Shown piece after piece: positions 5,432-45,330 of a DNA stretch of 64,000 nt (position 1 is the stretch's first letter; each line of letters begins with the position of its first letter). The stretch lies in assembly GCA_964016885.1 (NCBI GenBank), contig OZ024746.1, positions 36,332,001 to 36,396,000 on the forward strand, written 5' to 3'. This DNA comes from Eledone cirrhosa (lineage: Eukaryota). The position numbers and the translations under genes were made by a program. The notes under the pieces are model-generated. The model did no database searches and was not told the origin of the DNA. It saw only the letters and a list, made by a program, of their open reading frames with translations.

Positions 5432-5718
<287 letters not shown>

Positions 5719-5729
5719 GAAAAAGTATG

Positions 5730-5826
5730 ACCCCGACGGCAGAGCTCAAGCCGATTCGACGGCTATTTGTGAACTAAATTGGAATTTTTAGCCTGGTGAA
5801 TAAACAGCCGACAATTTCAAGGGGGT
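5730..5826 (-). ncRNA. Degenerate hammerhead (family C, left arm)
   Basis: Reverse complement of 7605-7701 with core changes (TTGAAAT, GAAT). Confidence 0.45.
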
Positions 5827-7604
5827 ATTTCCTTATATGGGAAGATTGTAGTTGTCAACAGGATTGGTTAACATTTGTTGTAAACGCAAATAAGTCTATC
5901 AGGGCATTTGATGGTAGGTAGGGGTGGCTAAACATGCCTGTAGAACAATAGGGGATTGAGTGGAGCGGAGAGGCGTTGAAAGTGATATGTATACAGAGAA
6001 TTTCTAAGGATAGTGAATGAAGTGGAGGAAGGAGGTTATAGAATAGGTAAATCGAATGAGAGTAGGAGACAATAAAAGATAATAGAAAGAAATAAAAAAA
6101 AAATATAAAATTAGATAGTGAGAAATTAATTAAAAAAATCACAATGCTATCTTACAATTACATGTTAATAAGTTGAGAATAGAAACAATTGTAGAAATTG
6201 AGTAGTACCAGTACTGATACAGAATTAAATGGGTTTAACACGTCTGCTATAAGTTGTTAGTAAAACGTGTTCAGCCAATTCTATCTTAAAATTCCAGGAT
6301 TGCGGAAACTGATGCTCCAGAGGCCCGATGGGCGGCATCGGGGTAGGCGAAGGGGAAAAGCAGACGAGGAAGGAAATAGGGGGCGGAAGGAAGTGATAGG
6401 ATGAGACAGGTGGAAGAAGAAGACAAAGAGTAAAAGAAAAGAGATACACGTACCTAGGTAAGCTTGGGTTTCCCCTAACTTATTCGCCAAGTAGGTGGCA
6501 TCAGCCCTTGTCTATTCACCCGGGTCGTTATGGGGTTTGAGGGCGAGGTAAGTCCTACGCAATCTGTGTTTTCCTGCGGGTACCAGTTCCTCTTTCTTGA
6601 TCAGGAATTGGTCCTTCGAAACATCATTTGTAATGTTTCCTCCGATAATAAGTTACACGGATAGCGTCCTCCCGTGTAAGAGTTTGCTTTGGAAAGTAAC
6701 CTAAAATCTCACTTGGAGCTTACTGTCCAAAGCTAACTCTTACACGGGAGGACGCCGTCCGTGAAAATTATGCTCGGATGAAACATTACAAATGCTGTTT
6801 TCGAAGGACCAACTCCTAAACAAGAAAAAGGAACTGGTAACCGCATGCAAACACAGATTGCGTATGACTTACCTCGCCCTCAAACCCCATAACGACCCGG
6901 GTGGGTAGACAAGTACTGATACCCCCCCCCCCCCTACTTGGTGAATATGTTAGGGGAAACCCCGGCTTACCTAAGTAGATGTATCTCTTTTCTTTTCTTT
7001 TCCTCTTTGTCTTCTTCTTCCCCTTGTCTCATCCTATCACTTCCTTCCAGCCCATATTTTCTCACTCGTCTGCTTTTCCCCTTCGCCTACCCTGATGCAG
7101 CCCATCGGGCCTCTATAGCATCAGTTCCCCACCCCTGTAATTTTAAGATAGATTTGGCTTAACACGTTTTACTAACTACTTATAGCCGACGTGTTAAACC
7201 CATTTAATTCTGTATCAGTTCTGGTACTACTCAATTTCTACAGTTTTTTTCTATTCTCAACTTATTAACGTGTAATTTTAAGATAGCATTGTGATTTTTT
7301 TAAATTAATTTCTCACTATCTAATTTTATTATTTTTTTAATTTCTTTCTATTATCTTTTATTTCTCCTACTCTCATTCGATTTACCTATTCTATAACGTC
7401 CCTCCTCCACTTCATTCACTATCCTTAGAATCTGCTTTATACATATCACTTTCAACGCTTCACCGCTCGACTCACTCCACTATAGTTCTACAGGCAAGTT
7501 CAGCCACCCCTACTTCCCACCAAATGTCATGATAGACTTATTTGTGTTTACAACAAATTTTACAACTACAATTTTACAACTACAATCTTCCCATATAAGG
7601 AAGT

Positions 7605-7701
7605 ACCCCTTTGAAAAGTTCGGCTATTTATTCACCAGGCTAAACATTCTAATTTAGTCCAGAAAAAGCCGCCGAAACGGCTTGAGCTTTGCCGTCGGGG
7701 T
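7605..7701 (+). ncRNA. Putative type I hammerhead ribozyme, U3-A8 core variant (family C)
   Basis: ACCCC(T)-TTGAAAA-G-TT-CGGCT...AGCCG-C-C-GAAA-CGGC-TTGAGCTTT-GCCG-TC-GGGGT. GUC ends at 7696. Position is 3' of a GIY-YIG remnant, as expected for Penelope pLTR ribozymes. Confidence 0.75.
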
Positions 7702-8393
7702 CATACTTTTTCCTATTTCCCACTCTACTAACCTAAGTATTGAGTACTCTGGTGCGTTATGGACCATCTGGTTCCTTACCACAATTCCTTTGTTATATAT
7801 TTATATACGTATATTTATATATGTATATTTATATATGTATATTTATATATGTATATTTATATATATGCATCTATATATATATTAAATATACATATAAACA
7901 TATTGATATTTCCTAATTTTTTAACCATTCTAATGAGGCGAAATATCTAGAAATTTTCTAAAGATAAACATCTTGGAACATAACCAGAAATTCAAACATT
8001 TGCTATCGCTTCAATAAATTGACTTTGGTATTTTCATCAATGTGATACAATTCAAATAAAAGATGGTAACTGCTTAATGATGTGAAAATCGCCAGACGAG
8101 ATCGAAGACGTGTTGTCGAAGGAGTTAACCGAAGATGATATTCGACATTTACGCAACTCAATGTCCCATGAATATCACCAAGAAATCGAATTATCTTTGT
8201 AAACAGTTTACTTTAGTAGATGCGTGTTTGCATATATTTATGTCTAAATATATGTCAATGTAGGCATACTTACATAGTCATAACTAAACACACTTACATA
8301 CTCACATATACAAGCACACATATCCCCCATATATATATATATATTTGTATATATATATATATACATACATATATATTTATATACATATATATG

Positions 8394-14806: not shown

Positions 14807-14871
<65 letters not shown>

Positions 14872-14873
<2 letters not shown>

Positions 14874-14969
14874 CGAAGGAAATGTGGTAAGGAACCAGGT
14901 GGACCGTTTTTTTAGTCCAGAATTAGCCGTCGAAACGGCTTGAGCTCAGCTGTCGGGGTCTTACTGGTT

Positions 14970-14972
<3 letters not shown>
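14872..14972. mobile_element. Miniature inverted derivative of family C pLTR in (TA)n
   Basis: Left part is the reverse complement of 7760-7795. Right part matches the 3' half of the family C hammerhead region (7655-7715). Confidence 0.75.
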
Positions 14973-15017
<45 letters not shown>

Positions 15018-17109: not shown

Positions 17110-18640
17110 GATGAGTGCTGCTTAAAATCACCCTACAGACGTCCCTATAGCGAGTCAATTTCCTGGACGGTACCCTCAACCTGGAAAATGATATGTACTA
17201 ACCATAGCCGAAACAAACGGCAACATAGACTACATCCACCGCCGCTATAACCATCCTAGAAGCATCACCAATAACCTGCTTTAAAAGATTTCCGTTTGTC
17301 CGCTAATGAACATATGTTCGATGAACCCGCGCCTTATTACAATCAGGCCCTCAGCCAAGCGGCTTTCGGGGAGGAAATCTACTTTTATCCAGCCTCCCCT
17401 AGCGGAAGCAGCAGATGACGCCACCACTCACGCCACGTCACGTGGTTCAACCCTCCCCACAATGCCGAGATTGCAACACCAATCGGGAAAATCTTCTTTA
17501 GAATCCTCGAAAAAAATTCCCACTACAACATCGCTACCACAATATAATCAACAAAAACACTATCAAACTCTCTTACAGCACCACACCCGACTTCGTACAA
17601 AACATCGCCTCCTCAAACAACAAGAGAGTCATCTCCTTTGGAAGAAACAACCTAGACATTAGTAGGAGAGCCGACCTGGAGGTGTAACTGTCCCGATAGA
17701 TCTGCGTGGCCCATCAACAACAGATGCCGAGAACGTAACGTGATCTACCAATGCGACGTGAGGACAGAAAACTCCAACAAAGCCTATATAGTATTAACCG
17801 CTCGTGACTTTAAGACCCGTCTCTACCAACACCGACATACGTTCTGAAACCCGGCCCGGCGACATGACACTACACTTTCGAGCCACATATGGGTCCTCCA
17901 AGTTAATAACATCACATACCATCTTACTTGGAGCTTACTCTCCAAGGCTAACACCTACAAGGGAAGACGCCGGTCGTGTAACTTATGCCCGGAGGAAACA
18001 ATACAAATGCTGTTTACGACCAACTCCTAAACAAATAAGACGAACTTGTAACCGCATGTAAACACCGATTGCGTAGACATACCTTGCCCTCAAACCCCTC
18101 TTGATCCGGGTGGGTAGACAATGGCTGTAACATCCTTCTTTTCCACACTTGCCGAACAAAATAGGGGAAACCCCGGCATAGATAAGTAGATGTAATTCTT
18201 TTCTTGTTTCCCCTTATCTCCTCTTCCAATTCCGTCCACTCCCTCTCCTCTCCATTTTCCTTCTTCCTATTTTGCTTACCCTGAGACAGCCCATCGGGCT
18301 TTTGTAGCCTCATCACCCCCACCCCCTTAAATTGTATATAGCATTAGCCGAAAACGCAATACCAGCTGACGCAATACCAGCTAAAATTATAGCAGCTGCC
18401 TTCATTGATCTACAGGCATGTTGACTCACCCACCACCAGGAAATATTTAATTATGTTTACAAGAAATTTTGACCAATCCTTTTGACAACAACAATTTTCA
18501 AAATGAATGATTATCGCACGTCCATATATGGAATTACCCCTTGAAAAGTTTGGCTACTTACTACCACTCTAAACATCTAATTTGGTCCAGAAATAGCCGT
18601 CGACACGGCCTGAGATGCGCAGTCGGGGTCTTGAACATTT
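17110..18640 (+). mobile_element. Penelope-like retroelement 3' fragment (RT C-terminus/linker, GIY-YIG endonuclease, pLTR), pseudogenised
   Basis: Translation with stops gives RLS.N..FD...PYYNQAL..SGF, VTWFNPPHN, C.CP...PINNRC..RNVIYQCDV, KAYI.LT..DFKTRLYQH, CNLCPEE, LLN...ELV.ACKHR. The 3' UTR is homologous to 6720-7712. Confidence 0.85.
18536..18629 (+). ncRNA. Family C hammerhead homolog in diverged Penelope copy (U3-A8 core, GAAA>GACA)
   Basis: ACCCC-TTGAAAA-G-TT-TGGCTA...TAGCCG-T-C-GACA-CGGC...GCAG-TC-GGGGT. Confidence 0.6.
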
Positions 18641-20917: not shown

Positions 20918-21308
20918 AAAGGTTATCATAAACATAAAATTAAAGATATATATATGTTGCAACTCTTCACTTTTAAGCTCAATGAAGAATTAATAAATTA
21001 AAATCAAAAAATCAGAGCATTATATCATAAATCATGTCTATAGAATCATCAGATATTAAAATATATACTATTTCTTCTTCTAATTAGCATAATTAACCAT
21101 ATACAAAATCAAATCTAGCACGCTTTAAGAATAATTTTCTTATGGGGAAATCTCCGACAAACAATTGATCGTAGCCTCTTCGCGGCAGGCCCGTTCCATT
21201 ATTTATTCAACATTTCGGCAGCATGCAGAATCCGACCGAGTATACCATCAACCGCACACAATTAGTAGTACAATTAAACTTAGAACAAATGCGCACATAC
21301 CGTAATTA

Positions 21309-21387
21309 TATCTCTACCATGGTTTCTTCCTTATTTAGGACATCCAAATAATATGAATTATCCAGAGTTAGGATTCGTCAGGAGATA
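21309..21387 (-). ncRNA. Putative type I hammerhead ribozyme (family D)
   Basis: Minus strand reads TATCTC-CTGACGA-A-TCCT...AGGA-A-GAAA-CCATGG-TA-GAGATA: 6-bp stem I, palindromic stem III ACCATGGT, GUA triplet. Confidence 0.75.
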
Positions 21388-22347
21388 AACTCAAAATCAG
21401 ACATTTAGTTTTTCTAACCGATCGCGCCAAATTTAGATTCAAAAATGGCTAAAATCGCTATGTAGCTGTGTACCAGCCAGAGAGAAAGCGTGTGATTGGT
21501 TGCTTACGGCTGGTAGGCTTGCTGCTAGAAAGCGCAGCCATATATCGCCAAATTTAATCTCAACCAATTGGGAGATTATTAAATATAAAGGTTATCATAT
21601 ACATACAATTAAAGATATATATATGATGCAACTGTTCACTTTTAAGCTCAATGAAGAATTAATAAATTAAAATCAAAAAATCAGAGCATTATATCATAAA
21701 TCATGTCTATAGAATCATCAGATATTAAAATATATACTATTTATTCTTCTAATTAGCATAATTAACCATATACAAAATCAAATCTAGCACGCTTTAAGAA
21801 TAAATTTTCTTATGGGTAAATCTCCGACAAACAATTGATCGTAGCCTCTTCTGCATGCTGCCGAAATGTTGGATAAATAATGGAACGGGGCTGCCGCGAA
21901 GAGGCTACGATCAATTGTTTGTCGGAGATTTACCAATAAGAACATTTATTCTTAAAGCGTGCTAGATTCGATTTTGTATATTGTTAATTATGCTAATTAG
22001 AAGAAGAAATAGTATATATTTTAATATCTGATGATTTATGATATAATGCTCTGAATTTTTTATTTTAATTTATTAATTCTTCACTGAGCTTAAAAGTGAA
22101 CAGTTGCAACATATATATATCTTTAATTTTATGTATATGATAACCTTTATATTTAATAATCTCCCAATTGGTTGAGATTAAATTTGGCGATATATGGCTG
22201 CGCTTCCTAGCAGCAAGCCTACCCGCCGTAAGCAACCAATCACACGCTTTTTCTCTGGCTGGTACACAGCTACATAGCGATTTTAGCCATTTTTGAATCT
22301 AAATTTGGCGCGATCGGTTAGAAAAACTAAATGTCTGATTTTGAGTT

Positions 22348-22426
22348 TATCTCCTGAAGAATCCTAACTCTGGATAATTCATATTATTTGGATGTCCTAA
22401 ATAAGGAAGAAACCATGGTAGATATA
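22348..22426 (+). ncRNA. Putative type I hammerhead ribozyme (family D, inverted copy)
   Basis: TATCTC-CTGAAGA-A-TCCT...AGGA-A-GAAA-CCATGG-TA-GATATA. Variable N7 differs from the other copy; one stem I mismatch. Confidence 0.7.
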
Positions 22427-22708
22427 TAATTACGGTATGTGCTCATTTCTTCTAAGTTTAATTTTACTACTAATTGTGTGTGGTTGATGGTATACTTGGT
22501 CGGATTCTTCATGCTGCCGAAATGTTGGATAAATAATGGAACGGGGCTGCCGCGAAGAGGCTGCGATCAATTGTTTGTCGGAGATTTCCCCATAAGAAAA
22601 ATAATTCTTAAAGCGTGCTAGATTTGATTTTGTATATGGTTAATTATGCTAATTAGAAGAAGAAATAGTATATATTTTAATATCTGATGATTCTATAGAC
22701 ATGATTTA

Positions 22709-26992: not shown

Positions 26993-28245
26993 TTCTTTGA
27001 GTCTCAGTCATTTAACTGGAAAGTTTGTTGAAATGAATATCAAGCCGCTACCTGCAGCTTCAGAAGTGTTCCAAAAAGCGAGGCTGGACTAATCTTCTTT
27101 AACCATCCTGGGAAACTCTTTGAGATAGTACCTAGAGCGCCTATGACAATCGGGACGACCTTGACTTCATGACAGTTCCAAATCCTTTTTACCTCTCACT
27201 TTAAGTCCTGGTATCGGTTAATTTTCTCCCTCTCCTCTTCTTGCACTCTCGTGTCAAATGGGCAGGCTACATCTACAATCAGTCACGATCTTTTTTCCTT
27301 GTTCAAAACCACCTATTGTGTTCTAATTTTTTGTCCGTCTGTATCCTAAAATCCCATAGCACCTTCACCTGATCGTTTTCTATCACCGACTCTGGCTTAT
27401 GGTCATACCACTTCTCAGAAAGTGGTAAATTGTTTACTTTGCATAGGTGCCAGTGGATCACCCTGCCCATCGCCTCATGTCTCCAGCCTTTATAGTGAGT
27501 CTGGGCTAGGTGTTTACACTCCGATACAATGTGAGCCACAGTCTCCTCTCTCTCTCCACAAATGATACGCAATGGGCTAGCCTCCTCCTTGTAAATATGG
27601 TGTTTCACCCACTTCGTTCTGAGGGTCTGCTCTTGCATAATCATTTCTTCTGTAACCTCTTTCAGGTCTCCTCTTTTTAACCAGTTCCATGTCTGTGGAT
27701 CTCTAAATTCAGTTTTCTCAAAAAATGTACTATGAAGGGATTTTTCATGAAGGTTGCTCTTCCTCCTTGTTGTTATTTCCTCCTTGGACATCCCCGGGTG
27801 TATTGTCTTCTCCTTCAGTACAATTTTGAGCATTGGCTCCCTACTGTCAGTCACGTATTTGTGCAGGTTGTTTTTTCTCCATCTGAACACAGTCCTCTAT
27901 ACTGATAAGACCTCTTCCAACTTCAGATCTCTTTAAGTAGAGTTTATCGACATCACTCCTCTTGTGGAACATGTTGTAGATAGTCAATAGCTTCCTAGTA
28001 TTCCTATCCATTTATTTTTGTTCAGCAACATTCCATTTCAGAATTCCTGCATTGTACCTAATAATAGACACAGCTCGGGAATGTACTGCACTTATGACAT
28101 TCCTACTATTTAGATGTGATTTTAATATGCTCCTTACTCTCCTAATGTACTCAGATCTTATCAATTCCTTCATTTTTTTTGTTCTTGATATCATCTGCCT
28201 CCAGAACACCTAAATATTTGTATCCTTCTTCAGTGTCAATTTCCT
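26993..28245 (-). mobile_element. R4/Dong-type RLE LINE, 5'-truncated degraded copy 1
   Basis: ORFs 27303-27890 and 28012-28209 are highly similar to the C-terminal half of 35678-38143. Shared 3' UTR. (TTA)n at both ends. Confidence 0.9.
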
Positions 28246-33873: not shown

Positions 33874-34960
33874 ATTCTCTGAGTCTCAGTCATTGATGTC
33901 AGTTAACTGGAAAGTTTGTTGAAATAAATATCAAGCCACTACCTGCATCCTCAGATATTCAGGACGTATCGGAGAGTTCTTGCTGTTCCCAGCAAGCATG
34001 CCTTTTGAAGCATTGCAAAAAGCGTGAATGGGCCAATTTTCTTTAACCAACCCTGGAAACATTTTGAGATAGTACATAATGCGCCTATGACAATCGGGAC
34101 AACTTTGACTTCATGGCAGTTCCAAATCCTTTTTACCTCCCACTTTAAGTCCTAGTATCGGTTAATTTTCTCCGTCTCCTTTTCTTGCACTCTCGTGTCG
34201 AATGGGCAGGCCACAACCACAATCAGGCACGATCTTTTTCCTTGTCCACTACCACGAGGTCAGGTCTATTGTGTTGCAGTTTCTTGTCCGTCTGTATCCT
34301 AAAATACCACAGCACCTTCACCTGATCGTTTTCTATCACCAACTCTGTCTTATGCTCATACCACTTCTCAGAATGTGGTAAATTGTTTACTTTGCATAGG
34401 TGCCAGTGGATCACCCTTCCCATCACATCATGTCTCAAGCCCTTATAGTGAGTCTGGACTAGGTATTTACACTCGGATACAATGTGATCCACAGTCTCCT
34501 CTCTCTCTCCACAGATCCTGCACAGTGGGCTAGCCTCCTCCTTGTAAATATGGTGTTTCAACCACTTTGTTTTGAGGGCCTGCTCTAGCGCAGTCATTAA
34601 CATTCCTTCTGTAGCCTTGTTAAGGTCTCCTCTTTTCAACCAGTTCCATGTCTGTGGATCTCTGAATTCAGTTTTCTCAACGAAGGTACTATGAAGGGAT
34701 TTTTCCTGAAGGCTGCTCTTTCTCCTTGTTGTTATTTCCTCCTTGGACATCCCCTGGTCTATTGTCCTCTCCTTCAGTACAGTTCTGAGCATTGGCTCCT
34801 TACTATCAGTCACGTATTTGTGTAGGTTATTTTTCTCCCTCTGAACTCAGTCCTCTATGCTGATAAGACTCTTGTCCGTCTGTATCCTAAAATACCACAG
34901 CACCTTCACCTGATCGTTTTCTATCACCGACTCTGGCTTATGCGCATACCACTTCTCAGA
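33874..34960 (-). mobile_element. R4/Dong-type LINE copy 2 (3' part) with internal ~90-bp duplication
   Basis: ORF 34223-34813 has CRICGEREETVDHIVSEC and NRPDLVVVD. 34870-34960 duplicates 34283-34372. Confidence 0.9.
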
Positions 34961-35600: not shown

Positions 35601-38600
35601 ATTCCTTGAATCTCAGTCATTGATGTTGGTTAACTGGAAAGTCCGTTGGATTGAATATCAAGCCACTACCTGCAGCCTCAGATATTCAGGACGTATCGGA
35701 GGGTTCTTGCCGTTCCAAGCAAGCATGCTTTTTGAAGCGTTCCAAAAAGCGTGAAGGGGCCGATTTTCTTTAACCATCCCTGGAAACCTTTGGAGATAGT
35801 CCCCAGTGCGCCTATGACAATCGGGATCACTTTGACTTCATGGCAGTTCCAAATCCTTTTCACCTCCCACTTTAGGTCCTGGTATCGGTTAATTTTCTCC
35901 CTCTCCTTCTCTTGCACTCTCGTGTCGAACGGGCAGGCCACATCCACAATCAGGCACGATCTTTTTTCTTTGTCCACAACCACAAGGTCAGGTCTATTGT
36001 GTTCCAGTTTTTTGTCCGTCTGTATCCTAAAATCCCACAGCACCTTCACCTGACTGTTCTCCATCACCGCCTCTGGCTTATGCTCATACCATTTCTCAGA
36101 ATGTGGTAGATTGTTTACTTTGCACAGGTGCCAGTGGATCACCCTGCCCATCACATCGTGTCTCCAGCCCTTATAGTGGGTCTGGGCTAGGTGTTTACAC
36201 TCGGACACAATGTGAGCCACAGTCTCCTCTCTCTCTCCACAGATCCTGCACAGTGGGCTAGCCTCCTCCTTGTAGATATGGTGCTTCAACCACTTCGTTT
36301 TGAGGGCCTGCTCCTGCGCAGCCATTAGCATTCCTTCTTTAGCCTTTTTGAGGTCTCCTCTTCTCAACCAGTTCCATGTCTGTGGATCTCTAAATTCAGT
36401 TTTCTCAAAGAAGGTACTATGAAGGGATTTTCCCTTAAGGCTGCTCTTCCTCCTTGATGTTATTTCCTCCTTGGATATCCCCTGGCCTACTGTCCCCTCC
36501 TTCAGTACAGCTCTGAGCATTGGCTCCTTACTATAGGTCACGTATTTGTATAGGTTGTTTTTCTCCATCTGAACACAGTCCTCTATGCTGATAAGACCTC
36601 TTCCACCCTCAGATCTCCTTAGGTAGAGTCTATCGACATCACTCCTCTTGTGGAACATGTTGTAGATAGTCAATAGCTTCCTAGTCTTCCTATCCATTTC
36701 TTTTTGTTCAGCAACATTCCATCTCAGAATTCCCGCACTGTACCTAATAATAGACACAGCTCGGGAATTTACTGCGCTTCTGGCATTTCTGCTGTTCAGA
36801 TGTGACTTCAATACGCTCCTTACTCTTCGAATGTATTCAGTTCTTAACAATTCCTTCATTTTTTTGTTCTTTATGCCATCAGCCTCCAGAACGCCCAAAT
36901 ACTTGTATCCTTCCTCAGAGTCAATTTCCTTTATCATCTCACGTGTTGGTATCTGGATCCCGTTACTTCTGCTCAACCTACCCCTCCTCATCACAATGAC
37001 TCCACATTTACCAATACCAAACTGCATACATATATCACTGCTGAAAATACGGACAGTGTCAACAAGGACATCCAACTCCTTCTCACTTTTCCCGAAGAGC
37101 TTAAGATCGTCCATGAAGAGGAGGTGATTGATGGTAAGCTCTCCCCTTCCCAACTTGTATCCTGCTCTCACTTTTCGCAGCATAATGGTCAAGGGGATCA
37201 GGGCAAGGACAAACAACAGAGGGGACAGGCTATCTCCCTGGAAGATACCTCTCTTGATCTTCACGCTTCCCAAGGGTACTCCAGTTGATGTCAACTCTGT
37301 CTCCCAGGACCCCATACTCCTGCCCAGCAACTGTCTGATGTTATCTGCCACCCTGAAGATCTCCAGGCTTTTGGTGATCCAGGAATGAGGCACCATGTCA
37401 AATGCCTTTCTGTAGTCTATCCATCCCATGGCAAGATCAGTGTGTCTCCTCCTGCAATTCCCCATTACCATCTTATCAATAAGCAACTGGTCCTTTGTAC
37501 CACGTGACTTCTTTCGGCATCCTTTCTGTTCGTCCGGCAACAAGTTGTTTGTGTGGAGGTGATGGTAGATTTCCTCAGACACAATGCTCGTCAACAGTTT
37601 CCACATTACGGGCAGACATGTGATAGGTCTATAGTTGGTAACATCATTACCCTTGATTCGGTCTTTCATTATCAGAACTGTGGTACCTTTTGTCAACCAC
37701 TCAGGCACCTCACCCGACACCAAGCAGTCATTGAACATGGCCGTCAGCTTCGGGTGGAGGGATGTTAAATGTTTAATCCAATACCCCTGCACACCATCTG
37801 GGCCTGGTGATTTCCAGTTGGTTAGTTTTTTGGCTTGCCCCTTAAGAGTTTCAACTGTGATACACAAATCAGTCTGTTGCTGTGCCTGCTCACCGATCTC
37901 CCTCTGTACTGTCTCAATCCACCCTGCCTGGGCATTGTGTCTAACATCCTGCTCCCATATTCCTCTCCAGAATGTTTTAGCTTGTTCCGCCCCAGGGATC
38001 AAGTCGTTGCCTCTTTCTTTCCCCTCAAGCTGTCCAAACAGCATATTCTGGTTGTTGTCGGACATGCGGTTCTGTTTATACTGACTGACTCTGTTCTCGT
38101 ATCGCCTGATTTTGGCACTCTTTGCTACAATGCGTTGCTTCAATTCCTCTATGATAATATTTAGCTTTTTACTCCTAGTTTTGTATTTTATTTCCAGTCT
38201 ATTTTAAGTGCCTATGTTTTTTAGTGTCCCATTCAGTAGTGACTCAAGCTTTCCTATGTCATTTCTCATTTCCTCGATTTGCCCACTCAGTCGCTTCTTC
38301 CACCACGGCTCTGCTCTTTCTTGTCTGTTGTTTCCTCTCGCTTTTATACCAAGTAGTTTCCTCACCGTATTTGCTGTTGCTCTGAGGATATTGTTGCACT
38401 GGTGAAGGCTCCTCGCCTCAAGGTATGGGATGACTTTGTTTACCTTAGCTGTTGTTTCTTTTAACTTTTTCCTGTCTACAAATCTTAGGTTCATAGGTCT
38501 CCCACTATCATTGTTCAACTCATCTACCACTAAATTTAGGATGTCAACCGAATCTTGTCCTAGCCCGTCAGCATTCATCTCCTCAGTGGCCGTATCTCTG

Positions 38601-39200
38601 TTCCAGGTATTATTTATCTCAGTATTCAGATCATTGTCTGCTTCGGGTGGTTCCTCCGTTCTCAGGACCTCCTCACCTTCATTTCCCGCCGGCTCGCTTG
38701 TCTGGCATACTACACCCGCCATCTCCAAGCCATTCTCTCTGCTCAGTTCCTCCAGTTCCAGCTCGTTTATCCACCCATTAGTTCTTATTACCCGAGCCTG
38801 CCCGGCCAATTTTTGTTCATCTAATTTAAATAAACCAATCTCGTTCCAGATGTTATGCATCCGTCTCCTGTAGCCCCTCTCCTTGGGGTTACTTTTCAGG
38901 TAGCATTGCATAACAGTTCTATTCAATTCTTTCGTCCAGTTGGTTCTGGCCCCTTTCCTTCTTCTTCTTCCTCCAACATCAGCAGTATTTGGTTGACAGT
39001 CAGGTTCCTGCTGCTGAGCCAGGGGGCACCTGTTGGGTGAGAGTCTGTCACATGACGTTCTAGTCTCCATTTCACCGTTATTCGAACTGTTTATGTTCGA
39101 TATTTAAACACTCTTATCGAGGATTGGCGAATGTATGTTTACATAGCCATCTGTGGGTCCGCCATCCCACTTGGCCCTTGTGTGGCATTATCACCACGCT
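35601..39200 (-). mobile_element. R4/Dong-type RLE LINE, near full-length copy 3
   Basis: Single reading frame 39070 to 35678, short 3' UTR, (TAA)n tail. The 5' boundary is approximate. Confidence 0.92.
35678..39070 (-). pseudogene. R4/Dong polyprotein (RT + CCHC finger + restriction-like endonuclease), ~1130 codons with one premature TAA at 38204-38206
   Basis: SPGPDG, YRPITCL, IDYRKAFD, GIFQGDSLSP, LFMDD, YKYLG, CRICGEREETVAHIVSEC, RH, RPD...D.ACP....EK..KY. ORFs 38204-39070 and 35678-38143 are in the same frame. Confidence 0.93.
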
Positions 39201-45083: not shown

Positions 45084-45140
<57 letters not shown>

Positions 45141-45142
<2 letters not shown>

Positions 45143-45323
45143 CGAAGGAAATGTGGTAAGGTACCAGGTGGACCATAACGCACCAAAGTACTCAATACTT
45201 AGGGTAGTAGAGTGGGTAATAGGAACGAGTAGGACCCCGACGGCTAATTGTGGACTAAATTAGTCTGTAGTCCAGAATTAGCCGTCGAAACGGCTTGAGC
45301 TCAGCTGTCGATGTCCTACTCGT

Positions 45324-45330
<7 letters not shown>
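45141..45330. mobile_element. Miniature fold-back derivative of family C pLTR in (TA)n
   Basis: 45141-45260 is the reverse complement of the family C 3' end (7655-7795 with a deletion). 45268-45330 is the sense 3' half of the hammerhead. Confidence 0.8.

Follow-up and report, generated by a model that had tools for sequence, protein, structure and literature searches.

The hammerhead motif in the window

In passages of PMC8557442, the function of hammerhead ribozymes in Penelope-like elements (PLEs) is called unclear, and the locus described here raises the question of whether such an element depends on its ribozyme for copying. The locus lies in a window of 64,000 nucleotides from Eledone cirrhosa (contig OZ024746.1), which is the whole stretch of DNA analysed. 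Our preferred reading, to which we assign a probability of roughly 0.55, is that the ribozyme cuts the RNA of its element only occasionally, that most new copies are reverse-transcribed from uncut RNA, and that cleavage is dispensable.

The sequence at 7605-7701 was confirmed as a real hammerhead motif of type I, in which the core, stems II and III, the GAAA and C17 could all be located. Positions such as -41 or +1 are counted from the predicted cut site.

7605..7610, + strand: 5' strand of stem I, ACCCCT (sequence read)
7611..7618, + strand: core U3 U4 G5 A6 N7 A8 A9 and G10.1 (TTGAAAA at 7611-7617, G10.1 at 7618)
7621..7673, + strand: long stem II with inner hairpin (CGGCT 7621-7625 / AGCCG 7667-7671; C11.1 at 7673)
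7650..7662, + strand: loop II zone (-35 to -48) that holds most 5' ends of insertions in the family (A at 7656 is -41, in TTAGTC)
7674..7696, + strand: GAAA, stem III, loop III, U16.1 and C17 (predicted cut after 7696)
7697..7701, + strand: 3' strand of stem I, GGGGT (sequence read)

Stem III has 5 bp (ACGGC/GCCGT, 7677-7681 / 7691-7695, with the GAAA at 7674-7677) and a loop of 9 nt, and the 3-8 pair is a Watson-Crick U3-A8 at 7611/7616. As far as sequence can tell, the original prediction was right about the Penelope-like pLTR setting, the U3-A8 core and the predicted cut after C7696, and the full stems II and III that it described are present in the window sequence. Two of its quoted strings apply in part: the core TTGAAAA is there, but the junction given as ACCCC-TTGAAAA reads ACCCC-T-TTGAAAA, with an extra T at 7610 (a U.G wobble at 2.1), and the hairpin AGCCGT-CGAA-ACGGCT is the form found in the family, whereas the window has AGCCGC (7672 changed). 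An Rfam scan gave no hammerhead family among the 150 matches listed of 206 (E up to 10).

The window copy of this type I hammerhead has decayed. It departs from the family majority at 7666, 7672 and 7689, its loop III reads GAGCTT versus the palindrome GAGCTC in the family, and its predicted fold is weak (probabilities of 0.61 for stem II and 0.23 for stem III); the corresponding predictions for four intact U3-A8 copies are 0.98-1.00 and 0.90-0.99. G12 A13 A14, A15.1-U16.1, H17 and G10.1-C11.1 are all present in the window copy, and each position is kept in 71-77 of 78 copies that we collected via the endonuclease, the UTR or the ORF start. The hammerhead is part of a fold-back insertion, and an older copy lies further along the window:

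5715..6702, - strand: left, inverted arm of the fold-back (-974 to +20)
6697..7800, + strand: right arm of the fold-back, -994 to +104, which holds the endonuclease C-terminus, the 3' UTR, the hammerhead and the tail and matches a family copy at 91.5%
6699..6908, + strand: broken remnant of the GIY-YIG endonuclease C-terminus (CxxC..E..N..CxH) and ORF stop (frame 2; matches the open frames of other copies)
7716..7800, + strand: tail between the preferred 3' ends +19/20 and about +104, the putative start sites of reverse transcription
17122..18630, + strand: older copy of another subfamily, with ORF C-terminal remnant (CxCX5C linker, GIY-YIG), 3' UTR and broken hammerhead at 18536-18629

A TA-rich repeat follows the tail at 7716-7800, and TA-rich repeats flank both arms. 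The closest copy to the window hammerhead is in the inverted arm (5727-5826, - strand), which the original prediction had missed; its core is damaged (UUGAAAUU, GAAU). The copy at 18536 had been put forward as a diverged Penelope copy that keeps the core, the stem II arms and GTC-GGGGT. It does keep TTGAAAA and GTCGGGGT; however, GACA replaces GAAA at 18602-18605 and stem III is broken (predicted probability 0.00), and the copy is another subfamily of the same family rather than an independent lineage. In both the 5727 and the 18536 copies, the set of G12-A14, A15.1-U16.1, H17 and G10.1-C11.1 is incomplete.

The host element

Based on protein motifs compared by eye with the published clade definition and alignment, the host appears to be a Hydra-clade PLE. 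The near-full copy L411 contains RLRWR, SDKT, YRDDG, CNCPDRSTC, VIY..YIG and CxxC..CKH. RLRWR and SDKT, also found in copy L002, correspond to the RWK motif and to the DKT in place of DKG that define the clade; CNCPDRSTC corresponds to its CxCX5C linker, and VIY..YIG with CNLC..E..N..CKH to its C-terminal GIY-YIG with CxxC and CxH. Copies also show insertion into (TA)n, an inverted truncated copy and a one-sided tail. According to parts of Craig et al. 2021 (PMC8557442), Hydra-clade PLEs, including Hydra-1_Obim, share the RWK-like and DKT motifs, the CxCX5C linker, the CxxC/CxH around E and N, the C-terminal GIY-YIG, (TA)n targets, inverted truncated copies and a hammerhead ~100 nt from the 3' end. 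The Hydra hammerheads listed in File S2 of that paper are all CUGA-N-GA with loops III of 1-3 nt and none has U3-A8, unlike the octopus element; the ribozyme of Hydra-1_oBim likewise differs from the one here. An assignment as Neptune-like, with a CCHH motif, was rejected, as the L411 motifs fit the Hydra clade defined in passages of PMC8557442.

The unit is ~3.1 kb long, its tail is ~85 nt, and the ORF starts ~190 nt downstream of the cut site. Pfam searches of three ORF fragments gave no relevant hit, and a search for homologues among longer proteins returned none, which is weak evidence. Further motifs resembling hammerheads, which combine a canonical CUGANGA core with a short palindromic stem III, were seen at L023, L145 and L176 (one family), L225 and L254; they probably come from other PLE families.

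Distribution of the U3-A8 core

The 19-mer core pattern has 2,612 exact matches in the genome versus 0 for a reversed control. Of the 78 copies, which were found without the ribozyme as query, 74 carry U3, 76 carry A8, and in 59 the core is intact throughout; N7 is the sole free core position (53 A, 19 C, 3 T, 2 G and 1 gap). UUGAUAAG is found as well in the diverged sister family D, where loop II is different. These observations agree with a model of a constitutive monomeric hammerhead with a fixed compensatory core and a selected off-switch hairpin, as originally proposed. The double change is not fixed, however: 521 of the 2,612 core matches (20%) carry C3, nearly all with A8 (CUGAGAAG). 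Among the first 100 C3 matches listed, counted by eye, 92 are CTGAGAAG, 6 are other C3.A8 and 2 are C3-G8, and 98 of the 100 keep A8. Positions 3 and 8 of the CUGAGAA branch do not form a Watson-Crick pair. This C3.A8 mismatched branch is prolific; in 203 sampled arms, no tail type is more frequent than the one found only with CUGAGAA (5/5 full copies), which 44 of them carry.

Exchanges at positions 3 and 8 were reportedly described by Przybilski and Hammann in 2007. U3-A8 had been presented as unusual for this lineage, a view contradicted by published passages on PLE hammerheads (PMC4209133) and on others (PMC3088659): Cervera and de la Pena 2014 give about 1,300 U3-A8 motifs from S. mansoni Cercyon elements in the former, and Perreault et al. 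give natural U3-A8 cores in the latter. As described in parts of PMC4209133, the Cercyon minimal hammerheads share with the motif here type I, the PLE pLTR, U3-A8, a long helix II, a short helix I, G10.1-C11.1 and a palindromic helix III region. The motif here differs in its stem III of 5 bp with a 9-nt loop, in a loop II of ~35 nt with an inner hairpin, in lacking an additional nucleotide behind A9 (U3-A8 register), and in its Hydra host clade.

Three helices, open at stem I, have 92.5% of cells paired. Covariation consists of three double changes; each is in stem II and separates family C, to which the window copy belongs, from family D. Stems I and III have none. The stem II changes are one split between two families and not independent events. 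Loop II differs wholly between the two families.

Because a tree of the endonuclease region was without the C3 and D groups, we used the UTR and loop II, leaving out the core (69 of 122 qualifying rows). In this tree, a grade of CUGAGAA copies encloses a UUGAGAA/UUGAUAA clade (100/100). With 41 chosen rows, monophyly was rejected for the C3 group and also for the family C U3 group, in a test for which the groups had been named after the first tree, with a long root branch and with template switching that could blur the tree. U3-A8 clades flank the C3 grade, so the pair has been kept or regained.

It is conceivable that CUGAGAAG is itself an active new core, with a C3-G7 pair in a shifted register (N7 missing, an extra A before G10.1), and that the branch never lost catalysis, but we judge this very improbable. 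G7 is present in 92 of the first 100 C3 matches listed, N7 changes only in the U3 clades of the tree, and an extra nucleotide between 9 and 10.1 is often found in PLE hammerheads according to passages of PMC4209133. Yet a single origin of G7 would produce the same linkage, CUGAGAA copies are predicted to misfold, and we found no active N7-deleted core in the limited literature covered.

Predicted folding of monomers, dimers and an alternative hairpin

The original prediction held that full stems II and III should allow the ribozyme to work as a monomer. Structure prediction is in line with this for intact U3-A8 copies, which would fold stems II and III alone (0.90-0.99); the median probability of stem III is 0.98, 0.90 and 0.99 in groups of n=29, 29 and 9. 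A monomer is not the only form available, however. The GAGCUC palindrome of loop III is kept in families C and D, so dimers could still form, and cofolding gave -27 to -31 kcal/mol for the dimer versus -12 to -14 for two hairpins (-23.3 for the window copy, with GAGCUU). Compared with the minimal PLE hammerhead, in which helix III is absent or has 1-2 bp, stem III here is longer (5 bp, with a 9-nt loop); the palindromic helix III or loop 3 that permits dimers is present as GAGCUC. PLE hammerhead dimers were reportedly described by Lunse, Weinberg and Breaker. In these models, monomer and dimer modes both appear open to U3-A8 copies. Median stem III probability in the C3.A8 branch is 0.05-0.37, a predicted inactive fold.

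The hairpin AGCCGT-CGAA-ACGGCT, which sequesters the GAAA, had been proposed as an off-switch. It arises because CGGCU and GCCGUC are each present twice, and it can form (91% of cells paired); in RNAs beginning at -41 its predicted probability is 0.93, 0.51, 0.20 and 0.52. Its status as a selected switch is not supported: none of its 6 pairs has a double change, versus 3 in stem II, the closing pair is lost in 6/21 rows, and it is rare in the predicted folds of intact U3-A8 copies. U3-A8 copies with G10.1-U give it a median probability of 0.00-0.01, and the hairpin exceeds 0.5 in 9/67 intact U3-A8 copies versus 14/18 CUGAGAA copies; it dominates only in the latter and in some truncated RNAs.

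The ribozyme contains two GCCGTC repeats, and deletions between them recur (L148, L151, L216 and window 45238-45263).

Ends of insertions across the genome

Exact matches in the genome number 49,562 for the 3' half of the ribozyme (control 0) and 14,527 plus 13,111 for the tail anchor. The whole 5' core is present in 8 of 80 sampled 3'-half matches (60 regions), a sample that leaves out four further core-bearing matches among those listed. The 19-fold ratio of 3' halves to 5' cores overstates the excess because the 5' core pattern misses the G-C-U variant. Most of the remaining sampled 3'-half matches are 150-250 bp fold-backs in (TA)n with arms head-to-head. In two public runs from one sample, of a kind not stated and possibly the source of the assembly, depth rises by a ~40-fold step toward the 3' half; loose ends in these runs, which may not be independent of the assembly, fall at -47 to -40 (L002 1560-1568), +20 and +100.

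Arms have their 3' ends at +19/20 or about +104, in either case beyond the cut site. We analysed 5' ends in arms sampled from the first 42 Mb of one contig, with ends set by X-drop extension of local alignments. They fall at -35 to -48 in 65/100 short arms and 71/130 tail arms, the latter from a sample that over-represents one of two pattern classes (in-zone stops 49/100 and 22/30), and in 136/154 of the arms that reach the zone; only 1 short arm and 4 tail arms end at -49 to -100, and 4 and 9 end beyond. With 85 nt between the two start sites, the stop is not determined by length. Among 30 arms bearing the ORF start, 19 reach -35 and only 2 of those stop by -48 (Fisher p=4e-12).

The position of these ends is difficult to reconcile with the constitutive monomer of the original prediction. 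Both 3' ends lie past the cut and the majority of arms run across it; efficient cis cleavage would not permit this. Together with the conserved loop III palindrome, the C3 copies and the lack of double changes in the hairpin, this leaves that model quite improbable.

The stop at -35 to -48 arises most likely because the RNA begins there, whether at a start site or after cleavage of the apical loop. A transcription start site within loop II has, in our estimate, slightly less than an even chance, and a nuclease cut is unlikely. TTAGT/TCAGT, conserved between the two families at -43 to -39, resembles an initiator. At L356, L359, L364 and L371, the sequence in front of arms starting at -40 to -42 comes from inside the ORF and has its end at +297 to +542, and these junctions suggest template jumps. 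An RNA starting at -41 should have yielded many full-length copies that begin there; only 2/19 do, which counts against it. Many arms reach -44 to -46, and an untemplated cap G is not enriched before A(-41), where by eye we counted 8 G, 10 C, 5 A and 77 T in 100 arms (6 G, 4 C, 3 A and 22 T in family D). An internal promoter is described for D. virilis Penelope in passages of PMC2377424. Splicing was ruled out as the cause of the stop zone, because the arms retain the AG and have no common upstream exon.

That the stop is a roadblock is a tentative possibility, less than even but real. In its wider form, in which the fold is mainly a structure for protein binding and for initiating reverse transcription, the loop II stop reflects a bound protein or tertiary contact, the +1 ends mark a pause and cleavage is vestigial, we regard it as rather unlikely. 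The stop zone coincides with the 3' arm and loop of the inner hairpin, long arms rarely stop in the zone, there is no clear cap G, the prolific C3.A8 branch is predicted to fold inactively, and the hammerhead of PAc, a Poseidon element of Anolis, is protein-dependent and dispensable in vitro according to passages of PMC11167929. A scaffold alone would not lead us to expect the conservation of the core and GAAA-GUC between families C and D despite their wholly diverged loop II, nor U3-A8 clades on both sides of the C3 grade; and the ORF-internal sequence that precedes arms at -40 to -44 (L250 and the four loci above) is what jumps from RNA ends predict.

L250 (G000:C1:27009432-27010413) is a tandem array of a ~257 bp unit, -44 to about +215, which is retrozyme-like and without the 5' core. 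As described in parts of 10.64898/2026.07.22.740005, non-LTR retrozymes resemble the short insertions here as small non-autonomous PLE-derived sequences with hammerhead parts; however, they are tandem units with a whole hammerhead each, whereas the short insertions here are inverted pairs with the 3' half only.

A peak of insertion ends at the predicted cut site

Among 205 tail arms, 65 have an end no more than 15 nt from the cut site, and the modal end is +1 (8/65, p=0.0014 against a uniform null that ignores microhomology), in a sample enriched via a filter pattern and with 40 loci hand-picked as truncated or doubtful. Fifteen of the 65 end at -1 to +2, and three of the eight +1 arms abut TA repeats directly. 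The signal is weaker in a less filtered set, with 7/130 arms at -1 to +2 (p=0.034). This peak, smaller than the pile of ends in loop II, falls on the very nucleotide predicted for the cut. It suggests that some cleavage occurs in vivo, as far as genomic ends can report it, and counts against the scaffold; a pause of reverse transcription at the foot of stem III could also produce it. Two of the eight +1 arms carry the tail type of the CUGAGAA branch, as an active shifted-register core would predict, but trans cutting by a U3-A8 core would explain them too.

A model of copying mostly from uncut RNA

Most insertions stop inside the ribozyme and the mismatched branch is prolific, from which we infer that cutting is likely occasional and not needed for jumping. 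In the sequence of events that we favour, modelled by analogy on PAc of Anolis, the element protein would nick (TA)n DNA and prime reverse transcription internally at +19 or +104. Most events would copy just 60-150 nt, stopping at -35 to -48, with two such cDNAs then combining to form a mini fold-back. In a minority of cases the template would have been cut at GUC, giving arms that begin GGGGUC, and long copies would come from tandem read-through or circular RNA, passing the stop zone. Because priming is downstream of the cut site, cleavage would be unneeded for insertion and the C3.A8 branch could keep spreading; for the same reason, cut RNA would yield only +1 arms, and long copies would need uncut, tandem or circular RNA.

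PAc offers the closest comparison in several of these respects. As reported in passages of PMC11167929, its reverse transcription starts at two internal sites, hammerhead mutants leave insertion in vitro unaffected, the hammerhead cleaves only with protein, and no RNA ends were found at the cut site. The element here shares with PAc the two internal start sites that define the tail, AT-rich targets, the extension of both strands, and a hammerhead that precedes the start sites and that, in PAc, is not required for insertion in vitro. PAc has C3-G8 and an ORF that starts in stem II, whereas the ORF here begins ~190 nt past the cut site; a stop zone inside the ribozyme is seen here, and none is described in those passages on PAc.

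A more elaborate version of events is doubtful in our view. Here the transcript would start inside its own ribozyme with the 3' half parked in AGCCGU-CGAA-ACGGCU, and would be cut by the core of the 3' pLTR or by a second RNA, closing a unit-length circle; strong-stop cDNAs from 5'-proximal priming would have seeded tens of thousands of mini fold-backs, and the core would have moved between U3-A8 states via a long-lived CUGAGAAG, maybe a new active register.

A hammerhead in the PLE pLTR, U3-A8, inverted truncated copies and tails are already known. What appears to be new is the excess of 3' halves with 5' ends piled in loop II, the prolific C3.A8 branch, the genomic peak at +1, and U3-A8 with long loops in the Hydra clade; in the literature covered, which included few subscription papers, we found no stop zone inside loop II, prolific C3.A8 PLE lineage, genomic peak at a hammerhead cut site, or long-loop U3-A8 in this clade. 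The family constitutes a large natural data set on PLE hammerhead function: its tens of thousands of insertions are a fossil record of the starts and stops of reverse transcription, including the peak at the predicted cut site, it displays a natural path through a 3-8 mismatch, and near-identical subfamilies with UUGANAAG and CUGAGAAG cores allow a side-by-side assay.

Further copies and repeats in the window

Two mini fold-backs of the family lie elsewhere in the window:

14865..14974, no strand assigned: piece of tail (-) with an attached arm that spans -44 to +20 (+), without the 5' core
45134..45329, no strand assigned: tail arm (-) to -48 with an internal deletion, plus an arm from -42 to +20 (+)

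Other repeated or coding-like sequences were also noted. Open frames of 841 and 299 aa occupy 35678-38203 and 38204-39103 (- strand), with related pieces at 27063-27581 and 34007-34534. A 472-bp tandem unit is present in three copies at 1250-2493, and 21132-22603 is an inverted repeat with 573-nt arms that are 97% complementary and 326 nt apart. A dispersed repeat of ~185 nt, SINE-like by size and spread, occurs at 2972, 23957, 43682, 51330, 56556, 58830 and 61867.
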